Source of the DNA: a virus
Lineage: Duplodnaviria; Heunggongvirae; Uroviricota; Caudoviricetes
DNA length: 11,721 nucleotides
Direction: 5' to 3' (one strand)
IMG/VR virus record: IMGVR_UViG_2663762849_000017
The translations under genes and the position numbers were made by a program. The notes under the pieces are model-generated. The model ran no database searches. It was given only the letters and a program-made list of their open reading frames with translations, and had not been told where the DNA came from. Shown piece by piece: positions 6,694-10,528 of this stretch (positions are counted from its first letter, which is position 1; each line of letters starts with the position of its first letter).

Positions 6694-7134
6694 ATGGATA
6701 TAAGCCCCTTACTTCATGCACTTTGTGCTGTGGCTGCGCAGATACTGGTTGGTCTTTTTACCGGAAACTGGGCTTACGGAGCGATAGCCGGTTGTACGTT
6801 CTTCATTGCGCGTGAACATACCCAGGCAGAATATCGCTGGATTGAAATGTTCGGGCATGGCAAGCGAATGAATATGCCGTGGTGGGGCGGTTTTGATCCG
6901 CGTGCTTGGGATGTGGCAAGCCTGATGGATTTTGCTGTGCCGGTGGTGGCGTGTCTGCTGGTCTGGCTGTTGGTTAATCGTGGGCGAAAAAAGGTGAGCT
7001 GTATATGCAACGGAGGAAGAAACCCCGTTGCTGGAAGCCAGGAAAAAGTATCGGGTGTTGCTGTCCTCGGATGTTGTGCTAATTGGGTGATAACAGATCC
7101 TGTGTATGGGAGTTTCCCTTTTTGCGTGCGTTGA
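6694..7134 (+). CDS. Hypothetical small integral membrane protein (about 3 predicted TM helices), 146 aa; C-terminal extent uncertain
   Basis: Strong Shine-Dalgarno AAGGAGG 5 nt before ATG 6694, 12 nt after the previous stop. Hydrophobic segments are LLHALCAVAAQILVGLFTG, AYGAIAGCTFFIA and VASLMDFAVPVVACLLVWLLV, followed by RGRKK. The last ~18 codons overlap the convergent sitD 3' end, so the true C-terminus is uncertain. Confidence 0.5.
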   Translation: MDISPLLHALCAVAAQILVGLFTGNWAYGAIAGCTFFIAREHTQAEYRWIEMFGHGKRMNMPWWGGFDPRAWDVASLMDFAVPVVACLLVWLLVNRGRKKVSCICNGGRNPVAGSQEKVSGVAVLGCCANWVITDPVYGSFPFCVR

Positions 7135-7936
7135 TGCTGGTAACGGCAAACGTCATGATGAACAAAACCGCGAATAAGACGACAATCGTCGGAGCTGGTG
7201 CGCTGTCGATAAAAAAGGACAACCAGACACCAGTCATTGACACTATTACCGATATGCCAGTCGCCAGTAGGAGCGCAATATGAAAGCGTTGTGTCAGGAG
7301 TACCGCAATGGCGCCAGGCGCAATGAGCAGAGAAATGGAGAGAATGATACCTACCGCTTTCAGCGTCGCCACAATGGTCAGAGAGACCATGCACAGCAGC
7401 CCATAATGCAGCCATCTCGTATGCAAACCGCTTACCTGCGCCTGTTGATAATCAAAGCTGAACAGCAAAAAATCCCGCCATTTTACGCTAATAACAAGTG
7501 TAACCAGCCCGGCAATAATCATCGTCTGGATTATATCGCCGATGGTTATCCCGAGCATGTCGCCGAAAAGAATATGGTCAAGATGTACGTCTGGTTTGAC
7601 TGCAATATACAAGATCAGACCTGCGGCAAACATGCCAGAAAAAACAATCCCCATCACTGTATCTTGCTTGATTCGGCTGTTGTCTTTCAGGTATCCCGTC
7701 GCCACCGCGCAGAATACTCCGGCGACGAATGCCCCTGTAGCCAAAGGTAACCCCAGAATCCAGGCAAGCACGATGCCAGGAAAAACCGCATGACTCATCG
7801 CGTCACCCATCAGTGCCCAACCTTTCAGGACCAGAAAGACTGACAGCAGCGCACAGGGTATGGAAACTACCAGTGAAATCAGCAGTGCGTGACTCATAAA
7901 GGTGAACTGCAGTGGCTCCAGTAATAATGCCATCAT
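7079..7936 (-). CDS. sitD: Mn/Fe ABC transporter permease SitD
   Basis: 285-aa polytopic membrane protein, last gene of a four-gene operon (binding protein, ATPase, two permeases). Its start overlaps the sitC stop by 4 bp. Confidence 0.85.
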   Translation of the reverse strand: MMALLLEPLQFTFMSHALLISLVVSIPCALLSVFLVLKGWALMGDAMSHAVFPGIVLAWILGLPLATGAFVAGVFCAVATGYLKDNSRIKQDTVMGIVFSGMFAAGLILYIAVKPDVHLDHILFGDMLGITIGDIIQTMIIAGLVTLVISVKWRDFLLFSFDYQQAQVSGLHTRWLHYGLLCMVSLTIVATLKAVGIILSISLLIAPGAIAVLLTQRFHIALLLATGISVIVSMTGVWLSFFIDSAPAPTIVVLFAVLFIMTFAVTSINARKKGNSHTQDLLSPN

Positions 7937-8790
7937 GAGCGATCCTCCAGCGCCTTATGCGCACGCCGACGATTTGCCAAAAGCCCATGGGTGGGCGCAA
8001 AGACAAATGCTAAAAGAAACAGCAGTGTCTGCGCCACCACGATGATTCCACCTGTCGCGCCGTCCAGAAAGTAACTGACCCACGCGCCGAGGAAACTGGT
8101 TACACTGCCAATAGTTACAGCAATCATGAGCAGGCGGGGAAAACGATCGGTTAACAACCATGCTGTTGCACCGGGAGTCACCACCAGACAGATCACCAGA
8201 AAGGCACCAACCGTTTGCAGCGCCGCAACGGTCGAAACCGACAGCAGGGTGAAGAAGAGGAGTTTTAATCTGCCCGGATGCAATCCAATAGCACGGGCGT
8301 GATTCTCGTCGAAAAAGGTCACCATAAGATCTTTCCATTTGAAAAAAAGCACGATGATCGAGAGAATGCCAATGATAGTGAGTTGCAGGATATCCGCCGG
8401 ATCGATTGCCAGAATATTGCCCAGGACGATGGTCTGAATGTTCACAGATGTCGGGTTCAATGACACCATAAACAGCCCCAGGCCAAAAAAGGACGAGAAG
8501 ATCAGACCGATGATGGCATCTTCTTTTAAGCGGGTGCGTTGGTTAAGAAACAGCATGCTGCCCGCAGCCAGTCCGCCGGAAAAGAAGGCTCCCAGAGAAA
8601 ACGGAAGCCCCAGCATATATGCCCCCGCAACACCCGGGACAATAGAGTGCGACAACGCATCGCCAATCAGCGACCAGCCTTTTAGCATCAGATAGCATGA
8701 CAGGAAAGCGCAGAGACCGCCGACCATCGCCGAGACCCACATCGCATTGAGCATATATTCATAGCTGAAGGGTTCCAGTAGCACGTTCAT
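7933..8790 (-). CDS. sitC: Mn/Fe ABC transporter permease SitC
   Basis: 285-aa polytopic membrane protein. Its start overlaps the sitB stop by 4 bp. Confidence 0.85.
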
Positions 8791-9614
8791 CTTTCTTCCC
8801 TCTGCACCGCTGACGGTCGATGAGCCACAAAAGGGCGTTCATCGTCAGTAATAATGCTTTCTTCCGAGCCGTTAAGTGTGACATGGCGCAGTACGCCGCT
8901 AAAAGCCAGCTCTAGGTTCTCGGCTGTAAAAGTGGTGTCTGTCGGCCCGCTTGCCAGGACGGTGCCTTTGACCATGACCGTATAATCGCAAAATGTCGTG
9001 ACGGATCCGAGATTGTGTGTTGAGACAAGCATCGTTTTGCCTTCCGCGCGTAACTCCCTCAACAGGCTGATGATTTTGGCTTCGGTTTTCACATCAACGC
9101 CAGTAAAAGGTTCATCCAGCAGGATCACATCACCCTGCTGTGCAATCGCTCTCGCCAGAAAGACGCGTTTCTTTTGTCCACCGGAAAGCTCGCCGATTTG
9201 TCGATGGCGAAAATTCACCATATCGACACGTTCCAGCGCATCGGTGACAATTTGACGATCCCTCTTTTTGGCGATACGCAACATACCCATATGCCCATAG
9301 CGGCCCATCATCACCACATCTTCCACCAGTACAGGAAATGACCAGTCAACCTCTTCTGACTGAGGGACGTAGGCAACCAGGTTTTTCTGTAACGCCTGTC
9401 GCGTGGGAATACCCAGAACAGATATCTTTCCGCTGGTCAGACGCACAAATCCCATAATCGCTTTAAACAACGTCGATTTTCCGGAACCGTTTACCCCAAC
9501 CAGAGCGGCAATAGATCCACTTGGTACTGTGAAGGATGCATCGCGCAGTGCTGTGTGCCCGTTATGCCAGGTGACAGCAACATCATTAACGACAATGCCT
9601 GCAGATTGCATCAT
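8787..9614 (-). CDS. sitB: Mn/Fe ABC transporter ATP-binding protein SitB
   Basis: Walker [13 protein letters not shown] signature LSGGQKKR, Walker B ILLDEPF and H-loop STHN in the translation. Its start overlaps the sitA stop. Confidence 0.9.
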
Positions 9615-10528
9615 TATTTCTCCCTTTTCCCGGCTTTAATTCCCTGTACCAGCGTACTGGTAGTAACCTTAAGAAGGTCGATATACGTCGGTACCGGGCC
9701 GTTTTCTGTGCTCAGGGAATCGACATAGAGCACACCGCCGTAGTGTGCGCCGGTTTCACGCGCAACCTGACGCGCTGGTTTATCGGAAATCGTACTCTCG
9801 CTAAAGACTGCCGGGATATGATTTTTCTTAACTATATCAACAACCTTACGTACCTGCTGCGGTGTTCCTTGTTGATCGGCATTAATCGGCCACAGATAAA
9901 GCTCTTTTAGCCCCAAATCGCGTGCGAGATAAGAAAAAGCCCCTTCACTGGTGACCATCCATCGCTGATTCTCAGGGAGTTCCGTAATCTGCTTACGCAG
10001 GGGGGCAAGGGTTTGGGTAATCTTGGCTTTATAAGTATCGGCATTGCGTTGGTAGGTTTGTGCATTTGCCGGATCGTATTTTATCAACGCATCACGAATA
10101 TTATCGACGTAAATCAGAGCATTATCTGGCGACATCCATGCATGGGGGTTAGGTTTGCCCTCATAGGGTCCTTCGGTGATCCCTACAGGCGTCACACCCG
10201 AAGAGACAATTACTTCTGGAACCCCATTGAGATGCTGGTAAAAGCGTTGGAACCACAATTCCAGATTCATACCATTGGCGAGAATCAGTTGTGCCCCCTG
10301 CGCACGTTTAATATCGCCAGGGGTAGGCTGATACTCATGAATTTCTGCACCAGGCTTGGTTATGGATGAGACTTCTGCAGCATCTCCCGCCACGTTTTTG
10401 GCCATATCCGCGATGATGGTAAATGTTGTAATGACCTTAAATTTTTCAGTTGCACTTGCCTGAAATGCGATCGAGCAGGTGAGTGCGAGGCTCCCCAAGA
10501 GCATGGTTACTTTTTTTATTGAGCGCAT
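9614..10528 (-). CDS. sitA: Periplasmic Mn/Fe-binding protein SitA (cluster A-I substrate-binding protein)
   Basis: 304 aa with an N-terminal signal peptide ([26 protein letters not shown]). Overall resemblance to the SitA/YfeA/MntC family, recalled from memory. First gene of the operon, with metalloregulator boxes upstream. Confidence 0.85.

Follow-up and report, generated by a model that had tools for sequence, protein, structure and literature searches.

The 11,721-nt virus contig analysed here (IMG/VR record IMGVR_UViG_2663762849_000017; "the window" denotes this whole stretch of DNA) carries a complete sitABCD metal-uptake operon inside a defective prophage. Very probably the operon is a moron, carried as a passenger in the non-essential b region of a lambdoid, phage-21-like phage with its integration site in icd. 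Four overlapping open reading frames (ORFs), all on the minus strand, span exactly positions 7079–10528 and correspond to sitD, sitC, sitB and sitA. The original prediction of a complete operon of four tightly coupled genes was exact in its coordinates and is backed by strong family matches.

Position of sitABCD in the phage genome

The late genes of the window (holin, J and stf) all lie on the plus strand and sit lies on the opposite strand, as had been predicted. Flanked by the tail-fibre genes and attR, the operon occupies the b-region position; the predicted placement between stf and att is seen in the window, in phages 21, 4A7 and Perceval, and in CFT073. The order J–stf–orf92–orf97–sitDCBA–...–icd'–attP–int recurs in phage 21, 4A7 and about 25 other free phages, and is common also to at least 14 IMG/VR contigs and UPEC CFT073. 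In complete phage genomes, the location of sit between the tail-fibre genes and attP is documented by the phage 21 and 4A7 gene tables and by 26 phage records. The same cargo in the same relative position also occurs in a lambdoid prophage at a different chromosomal site. Relatives that lack sit (mEp460_4F5, Tritos and HannyBb) match J, stf, orf92 and orf97 up to position 6972 or 7063, after which no sit follows. Sit is dispensable cargo because these sit-less relatives share the backbone up to 7063.

The side tail fibre gene stf (4340–6406, plus strand) is intact, encodes 688 aa and is a homologue of the phage 21 side tail fibre gene (Pfam phage_tail_N, E 5e-67). Two small plus-strand ORFs follow. 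The conserved phage ORF orf92 (6403–6681, 92 aa; phrog_1361, E 3e-42) is found in phage 21, 4A7, mEp460_4F5, Tritos and CFT073. The small membrane-protein ORF orf97 (phrog_1443, positions 1–96 of 97) usually comprises 97 aa (6694–6987) and is lengthened here to 146 aa (6694–7134) because a TGA-to-CGA change at 6985 permits read-through; its stop codon is intact in phage 21 and 4A7. The extension covers the C-terminal remnant of a tail-fibre-assembly gene (tfa, ~7007–7063), which is annotated in one matching genome context (L007) and visible in the window by its KKYRVLL motif, and it overlaps the 3' end of sitD. On the other side of the operon lies the pseudogene remnant of an Abi-like phage moron (10641–11069, plus strand; phrog_12663 positions 111–205 of 246, E 2e-44). 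This remnant is 5'-truncated at the sit breakpoint 10665/10666, is broken by stop codons and lies in AT-rich b-region DNA with 33% GC; its match to an abortive-infection PHROG is weak (E 0.004). Pfam returned nothing for orf92, orf97, the Abi-like remnant or the 252-aa ORF of phage 21, and in Pfam and PHROGs searches the small phage ORFs matched solely PHROGs families of unknown function. A tRNA scan of the window found nothing and an Rfam scan found nothing above the gathering score. Below that threshold, a weak IS009 match at 6923–7083 (51 versus 117 bits) and an STnc150 match at chance level were noted.

Phage 21 (OL657228) resembles the window in carrying J, stf, the 92-aa ORF, the 97-aa membrane ORF, sitDCBA, icd' and attP; it is 97.5% identical to window positions 3471–10665 and has the same holin type and icd attachment site. 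Unlike the window, it is a complete 42.9-kb phage. Its spacer between sit and att is a different 1.5 kb that includes the 252-aa ORF, whereas that of the window is 0.5 kb of Abi-like pseudogene. A porin moron is absent upstream of the phage 21 holin, and the holin region is just 84% identical to that of the window. The phage 21 sequence comes from purified virions and two sequencing methods, which makes assembly chimeras of sit and phage unlikely. Phage 4A7 is 99.6% identical to window positions 6266–11659, with the Abi-like remnant and icd' included, and differs by an IS66-family insertion at window positions 6266–6273. The lambda-like phages 4A7, ev017, ev207 and 1H12 (infant gut and wastewater) and Perceval (a prophage of AIEC LF82) are intact and inducible, whereas the window has a deletion of ~17 kb. 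It has been reported that 70% of infant-gut lambda phages carry sitABCD, with a fur box (PMC6969025), and that sit of the Perceval prophage is transcribed as a moron while virions are still formed (PMC9928086). The phage of the window is a member of the phage-21 family, which refines the earlier reading.

Alternative origins of the sit copy

The older literature describes sit loci as pathogenicity islands, and sitABCD could in principle be a separate island inserted beside an already decayed prophage, with the phage never having been its carrier. The "PAI sit" of Shigella and EIEC, summarised in PMC7545054, is unstable, bears IS elements and occupies several chromosomal sites. The closest complete genome also has IS30, IS110 and IS3 copies in the early region of its prophage. 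However, sit is also carried by free phages, plaque-forming or induced, in which its left junction and flanking ORFs are the same, and no IS element or island integrase adjoins sit in the window. The Shigella sit islands differ from the window in being IS-rich and at other sites (aspS and yecN in the review table; PMC7545054). An island origin is already contradicted by these observations, and we regard it as very improbable. Another named island is that of CFT073, for which the name PAI-CFT073-icdA has been used (PMC2639426). At the same chromosomal site as in the window, it has I, J, stf, two hypothetical ORFs, sitDCBA, a hypothetical ORF, icd', ymgL, ycgX and bluR. It differs in that tail genes are kept upstream of J, the spacer is of phage-21 type with the 252-aa ORF, and sitA is annotated as frameshifted.

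A second alternative is that the chromosomal copy came secondarily from a ColV/IncF-type virulence plasmid by IS-mediated transfer into the prophage. Such plasmids carry the same operon and promoter (window positions 7052–10664 at ~97% identity). Sit occurs at 1,060 plasmid places, ~1,083 PLSDB plasmids match, and IS1 lies near sit in an example plasmid. Yet the plasmid copies are only ~97% identical, compared with 99.5–99.9% for phage copies, and the window has no IS element at either sit border. The plasmid flanks also differ: they contain the aerobactin gene iucA, crcB and IS1, and phage genes are absent. Plasmid homology begins at 7052, within a 12-bp motif, CGGRTGYTGCTG, that is also present in sit-less phages; this border is compatible with transfer in either direction or with a shared ancestor. 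Derivation of the window copy from a plasmid has a very slight probability in our assessment.

A right border at 10664/10665 shared by phage 21, a second prophage and the plasmids was considered and rejected. With phage 21 as the query, these three stay mutually homologous for ~50 bp further, and 10665 is, for this reason, a breakpoint confined to the window/4A7 lineage. In the plasmids, the shared sit module reaches ~50 bp further upstream than in the window lineage.

Decay of the prophage

Upstream of stf, the structural genes are reduced to J, as the original prediction had stated for a remnant retaining only J and stf. The phage-21-type holin gene (S21/essD; 485–700, plus strand) has a clear Pfam match (PF04971 Phage_holin_2_1, E 2e-35), matches the holins of 4A7 and phage 21, and is annotated essD in one matching genome context (L001). 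It is followed by an in-frame fusion ORF, R::J (700–4287, plus strand; 1195 aa), with matches to NCBIfam lambda_TipJ and Pfam Phage_lysozyme. The first 65 codons of the fusion are those of the SAR endolysin R (700–893), and the remainder is the tail-tip gene J from codon 3 (894–4287). The lambda_TipJ match spans residues 66–1195 with 2327 bits, and the Phage_lysozyme match covers residues 33–82. In local BLAST alignments with 4A7 and phage 21, the junction maps to 894/895 and shows TA microhomology. The deletion of ~17 kb (17,253 bp in 4A7 coordinates) that joined R to J eliminated Rz and cos together with every head and tail gene from Nu1 to I. An identical R::J junction is present in 79 complete genomes, and head and tail genes are likewise absent between essD and gpJ in L001.

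In the lineage of this strain, the prophage is unable to make particles because this deletion fused the endolysin start to J. Sit is thereby left fixed in the chromosome beside attR. The fusion joins a signal anchor to J, is open over 1,195 codons and occurs in at least 79 genomes; it might have been retained as a membrane-tethered receptor-binding protein. The alternative view of R::J is that of a neutral scar of the deletion. We consider it unlikely that either this retention or the reality of the joint at the left end of the contig, described below, holds.

Integration at icd and the left end of the contig

The attachment junction was located with a five-way att alignment comprising attR, attL, the attP of 4A7 and of phage 21, and an empty attB. 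The attR junction is icd' (11445–11608, plus strand), which repeats the final 164 nt of icd, since its 5' edge marks the start of homology between phage and bacterial att sites. This copy shares 89% identity with the 3' end of icd at attL, and L001 and CFT073 annotate it as a pseudogene of icd. An icd-type intrinsic terminator hairpin follows at 11632–11654 (plus strand; terminator scan). Alignment with an empty-site genome (L006) identifies 11660–11721 as bacterial flank towards ymgL, and the flank is ymgL–ycgX–bluR (genome contexts L001, L040 and L006). The source is a whole draft contig that ends 113 bp after icd', and adjacency to icd rests on related complete genomes, in which an intact icd lies at the opposite prophage end (attL). 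In the closest complete genome, icd is followed by a frameshifted e14-type intE and then by xis; the remnant is a mosaic because this att-proximal integrase is e14-type and frameshifted rather than phage-21-type. A match to the phage-21-type Int arm site, CTTTCCCCAAAA, occurs at 11314–11325, and is not significant alone because at least one match arose in 39 of 200 shuffles. The predicted integration at icd stands for the right end (attR with its icd' duplicate, the ymgL–ycgX–bluR flank and the intact icd at attL in relatives), while the left end of the source contig is a fragment of rsxB.

This fragment (1–178, minus strand) is internal to rsxB, corresponds to about residues 85–143 including the 4Fe-4S motif, is 100% identical to rsxB and abuts phage DNA bluntly at 178/179. 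Position 44 of the deposited contig is an N. The core gene rsxB is single-copy in 5,425 of 5,426 genomes, and in SK1144 it lies ~444 kb away in the opposite orientation. Neither microhomology nor an IS element was found at the joint. The junction, searched as an exact 38-mer, had 0 matches in each of three collections (genome_contigs, metagenome_contigs and viral_contigs), and it is in none of the complete genomes. The joint reflects an error of assembly or else a rearrangement found in this strain alone, and the rsxB fragment is context outside the sit/prophage unit. If real, the joint would be one endpoint of a ~440-kb inversion across the replication terminus that breaks rsxB, part of the SoxR-reducing complex, and the sit-carrying remnant would have been severed from the rest of its prophage.

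The encoded transporter

Neighbouring ORFs of the four share 1, 4 and 4 bases, an overlap compatible with translational coupling; their order is binding protein, ATPase, permease, permease. The gene sitA (9614–10528, minus strand) encodes a periplasmic metal-binding protein of 304 aa with an N-terminal signal peptide (Pfam ZnuA, PF01297, E 9e-86), and sitB (8787–9614, minus strand) encodes an ATPase of 275 aa (Pfam ABC_tran; NCBIfam PRK15056). Two inner-membrane permeases of 285 aa each are encoded by sitC (7933–8790, minus strand; Pfam ABC-3, E 6e-83) and sitD (7079–7936, minus strand; Pfam ABC-3, E 2e-76), both annotated under these names in matching genomes. Over its 3,450 bp, the segment matches the annotated sitABCD of strain BCE049 with 100% identity. 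At ≥80% coverage it is present in 2,337 complete E. coli genomes, and sit DNA is 97–100% identical to PGAP-annotated sitA–sitD in 2,384 of 5,426.

SitB scores 589 bits against the manganese/iron ABC ATPase equivalog NF011630 (PRK15056; cut-off 393) and has Walker A (GVNGSGKS) at residue 40, LSGG at 143 and Walker B (VILLDE) at 163. SitA aligns with crystallised YfeA (5uxs) over 286 residues (E 2e-125); YfeA and cyanobacterial MntC are its nearest solved structures. Its His-His-Glu-Asp metal-ligand motifs are kept (H64, H129, E195 and D270), and these residues are the probable equivalents of YfeA H76, H141, E207 and D282, given a 12-residue alignment offset and the YfeA literature. Alignment of all four proteins to the SitABCD/YfeABCD family had been set beforehand as one of the points on which the prediction could fall; the family matches and the YfeA alignment bear it out. 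Assignment to the SitABCD/YfeABCD type (cluster A-I Mn/Fe ABC importers) is supported by these sequence matches. YfeABCD of Yersinia pestis and SitABCD of Salmonella SPI-1 share the four-gene architecture, but they are chromosomal or island loci and not phage cargo.

By analogy with these orthologues, the segment would encode a Mn2+/Fe2+ ABC importer: SitA would capture the metal on the periplasmic side, a channel of SitC and SitD would span the membrane, and ATP hydrolysis would be the task of SitB. Import of zinc, as by ZnuABC, or of another metal instead of manganese/iron could be argued from the Pfam family name ZnuA and from AztC/AztB zinc models that match under their cut-offs, but it is vanishingly improbable given that SitA scores 67–77 bits against ZnuA/AdcA models and ~200 bits against manganese binding-protein models, that YfeA and MntC are the best solved relatives and the ligand motifs are conserved, that SitB exceeds the manganese/iron equivalog cut-off and that an MntR operator is conserved upstream.

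Promoter and regulation

The putative MntR-type operator, identified by motif search, is a perfect 9-N4-9 palindrome, AAACATAGC-N4-GCTATGTTT, at 10561–10582. It occurs once in the window, had 0 matches in 200 shuffles, and has half-sites identical to those just upstream of K-12 mntH. A putative Fur box, GCTAATGATAATCATTTTC, at 10605–10623 (minus strand) has 17 of 19 consensus matches; no other match occurs in the window, and chance would yield 0. Phage-borne sit has also been described with a fur box upstream (PMC6969025). A simple promoter scan of the window did not call a sigma-70 promoter (-35/-10) for sit, and a terminator scan found no canonical intrinsic terminator downstream of sitD. 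The palindrome and the Fur box would tie the sit operon to host metal regulation. In YfeABCD and Salmonella SitABCD, Mn2+ and Fe2+ transport and MntR/Fur repression have been reviewed, with Fur acting alone in Yersinia, which is without MntR (PMC3852070). The window operon would have its own promoter with predicted host MntR and Fur operators, pointing against the phage late genes; by this design, a lysogen starved of manganese or iron should express sit whatever the stage of the phage cycle. Regulation and expression in lysogens, and any fitness benefit, are those expected from the literature on related systems.

Implications

The guess that the arrangement was probably known was correct: it has been published and is common. 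The genome of CFT073, which has this arrangement, was sequenced in 2002. No new biology is involved, since the arrangement is present in CFT073 and classical phage 21 and has been treated explicitly in publications of 2020–2023; it is already known from Mathieu 2020, Misson 2023 and Feiss 2022, and from "PAI sit" and "PAI-CFT073-icdA". This analysis shows the gene identities, gene order, junctions and operator motifs, together with the same arrangement in free phages. The window represents textbook lysogenic conversion, in which a temperate phage brings a virulence-associated metal importer prewired to host Fur and MntR, and decay of the prophage later traps this importer in the chromosome. 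For genome annotation, sit found beside J and stf at icd should be read as phage-21-type cargo and not as a separate island.

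The sitABCD operon and its transporter

The four-gene metal-uptake operon of the original prediction occupies exactly 7079-10528, where four minus-strand open reading frames (ORFs) overlap their neighbours by 1, 4 and 4 bases: sitA (9614-10528, 304 aa, Pfam ZnuA), sitB (8787-9614, 275 aa, ABC_tran), sitC (7933-8790, 285 aa, ABC-3) and sitD (7079-7936, 285 aa, ABC-3). One complete E. coli genome has an annotated sitABCD that matches the window DNA at 100%, and sitABCD occurs at 97-100% DNA identity in 2,384 of 5,426 complete genomes, located on the chromosome in 1,683 places and on plasmids in 1,060. 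The SitB ATPase scores 589 bits against a cut-off of 393 with the NCBI manganese/iron equivalog model and has Walker A, signature and Walker B motifs. SitA has an N-terminal Sec-type signal peptide, can be aligned along 286 residues with the crystallised YfeA of Yersinia pestis (E 2e-125), and is scored far higher by manganese binding-protein models than by zinc-specific models. All four SitA metal-ligand motifs are conserved and place H64, H129, E195 and D270, which we take to be YfeA H76, H141, E207 and D282 (an alignment offset of 12 residues). Both Mn2+ and Fe2+ are transported by Sit orthologues, which have a part in the virulence of Salmonella, Shigella and avian E. coli (reviewed in PMC3852070).

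sit as phage cargo

Comparison among phage genomes indicates that the sit operon truly belongs to the phage as cargo. In all, 26 Escherichia phage records (~43-50 kb) contain the segment at 99.5-99.9% identity, among them classical phage 21, whose DNA was sequenced from purified virions. The proposed b-region position of sit between stf and att agrees with gene order in phages 21 and 4A7, which runs J, stf, a 92-aa ORF, a 97-aa membrane ORF, sitDCBA, spacer DNA, icd'/attP (icd' being the icd 3' duplicate) and int. Phages without sit share the backbone to window position 6972 (mEp460_4F5) or 7063 (Tritos, HannyBb) before diverging; because these relatives keep the same backbone, sit is dispensable.

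Uropathogenic E. coli CFT073 shares both this arrangement and its chromosomal site, in the island PAI-CFT073-icdA. Its sitA (9215-10151 of the extracted NC_004431.1 locus) is marked as frameshifted in the current RefSeq annotation, which could mean either a true pseudogene or a mistake in the sequence of 2002. In a second strain (NZ_OW967178.1, locus positions 5126-9417), sitDCBA lies at the right end of another lambdoid prophage, adjoining uspF-ompN; it follows the tail-fibre genes there, in the same relative position as in the window. This location fits the published multi-site 'PAI sit', which is described in reviews and found at several sites (PMC7545054). Among the lambda phages of infant E. 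coli, 70% were reported to carry sitABCD, with a fur box noted (Mathieu et al. 2020, PMC6969025), and sit was listed among the morons that the active Perceval prophage transcribes (Misson et al. 2023, PMC9928086); the phage 21 genome announcement describes multigene virulence morons. Given this literature, the finding is a correct reading of an arrangement that was already known, as had been guessed.

The prophage at icd

A closely related complete genome matches window 179-11721 at 99.7% identity. Its gene order starts with icd, an ATPase/HNH gene pair, a frameshifted intE, xis, IS elements, O/P, ninE to rusA, and Q, and continues with a porin gene, holin, J, stf, two small ORFs, sitDCBA, an icd 3' pseudogene, ymgL, ycgX and bluR. 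Five sequences were aligned at the attachment site: attR (window), attL, attP of 4A7, attP of 21 and an empty attB. Phage/bacterial homology begins at TGCTGCGCCA (window 11445) and spans the icd stop (11608) and terminator (11632-11654), and the attR arm on the sit side is common to both phage attP sites. The alignment fits classical work on phage 21 and e14, which reportedly established that a substitute icd 3' end is brought in by the phage.

The attL of that related genome (NZ_CP069528.1, locus positions 8440-8480) has three TTATCAAAA repeats, which are e14-type Int arm sites, whereas the attP sites of phages 21 and 4A7 have three CCCCAAAA repeats instead; the remnant is therefore an e14/21 mosaic. 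Just inside this attL, between icd and intE, lies a gene pair for an AAA-family ATPase and an HNH endonuclease (8815-11189), which resembles a two-gene, Septu-like anti-phage defence system. Even the 'empty' icd site (locus positions 2540-2640 of the empty-site genome) has a second, diverged icd terminator copy and e14-type repeats immediately ahead of ymgL; they flank iraM-ymgK, a segment missing from the window lineage (window 11660-11721).

Prophage decay and the left end

The 4A7 holin and the opening 199 nt of the 4A7 endolysin gene R align with window 179-895, and from 894 onward the window matches J starting at its sixth base. The junction (894/895) has a 2-base overlap of TA microhomology. 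The deletion, 17,253 bp in 4A7 coordinates, removed Rz, cos and all head and tail genes from Nu1 to I, and left an in-frame 1,195-aa ORF (700-4287) of the first 65 codons of the SAR endolysin followed by J from codon 3. This R::J junction is shared by 79 complete genomes and is thus inherited within a lineage; the ORF is intact in the window, and most of the 79 have it annotated as an intact gpJ. Coverage of the window reaches 80% or more in 550 genomes, and CFT073 retains tail genes upstream of J. The window stf is an intact 688-aa ORF, compared with a split gene in a related complete genome and CFT073. An IS with three transposase ORFs lies in the stf 3' end of 4A7 and relatives (4A7 locus positions 20789-23322); in 4A7 it is flanked by an 8-bp duplication of window 6266-6273, where the window has no insertion.

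By exact-protein lookup, the window corresponds to the whole of contig CCBY01000134.1 (11,721 bp; draft assembly GCA_000936105.1), and the two differ only at position 44, where the deposit has an N. Positions 1-178 come from inside the core gene rsxB and are joined to phage DNA upstream of holin. Complete genomes carry a single rsxB copy (5,425 of 5,426), which lies ~444 kb from the prophage in opposite orientation. The 178/179 joint is blunt, with neither microhomology nor an IS, and was found in 0 of 5,426 complete genomes and 0 of three public collections; in a metagenome contig that shares the R::J fusion, the normal porin gene lies upstream. An assembly artefact is at least as likely as an inversion because the joint lies at a short-read contig end with an N nearby (position 44 of the deposit). 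Either that, or a simple, private rsxB-prophage inversion of ~440 kb, would yield the joint. Since the contig starts with an rsxB fragment, the link of the remnant to icd and int in the source strain rests on its relatives.

Borders of the sit module

On the left, the backbone common with sit-less phages stops at 7063, within a tail-fibre-assembly (tfa) gene remnant (…KKYRVLL). Homology with plasmid sit copies starts at 7052, and a 12-bp motif, CGGRTGYTGCTG, recurs at this edge in a plasmid and in the second prophage, so that recombination at short homology may be inferred there. At window 6985, CGA replaces the TGA stop of the 97-aa membrane ORF conserved in phages 21 and 4A7; the ORF (6694-7134) reads through to 146 aa, crossing the tfa remnant and running convergently into the 3' end of sitD. 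A weak match to Rfam IS009 (RF02111; 6923-7083, 51 bits where the gathering score is 117, E 2e-9) spans the membrane ORF end, the tfa remnant and a hairpin (GCAACGG...CCGTTGC), and probably arises because this prophage DNA has a homologue in a K-12 cryptic prophage, not because it encodes a functional sRNA.

At the right edge, the window and 4A7 share a breakpoint, 10665/10666, that leads into AT-rich (33% GC) DNA from a fragmentary Abi-like gene. This plus-strand remnant (10641-11069) is 5'-truncated and stop-interrupted, covers positions 111-205 of 246 in phrog_12663, contains an R-x4-H motif and weakly matches abortive-infection proteins. Phage 21 and CFT073 have an unrelated 252-aa ORF (phrog_20520) in its place. 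Position 10665 was rejected as a universal cassette end and is a lineage-specific breakpoint, because phage 21, CFT073, the second prophage and plasmids share ~50 bp more sit upstream DNA among themselves. In phage 21 a ~130-bp segment (25596-25727) is located upstream of sitA; its counterpart in the second prophage, 86% identical, is downstream of sitD, which suggests that recombination has recurred at short repeats around the module.

Operators and host regulation

Because transcription of sit runs opposite to that of the phage late genes, late read-through would not express it; holin, J and stf are all on the plus strand, as anticipated. Upstream of sitA are a perfect palindrome, AAACATAGC-N4-GCTATGTTT (10561-10582), and a Fur box matching 17 of 19 consensus positions (10605-10623); each is single in the window and had 0 matches in 200 shuffles. 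As an independent check, identical palindrome half-sites occur just upstream of K-12 mntH, a classic MntR target (PMC3852070). The half-sites shared with mntH, together with the Fur box, indicate that the sit operon carries its own predicted operators, through which it would plug into host metal regulons.
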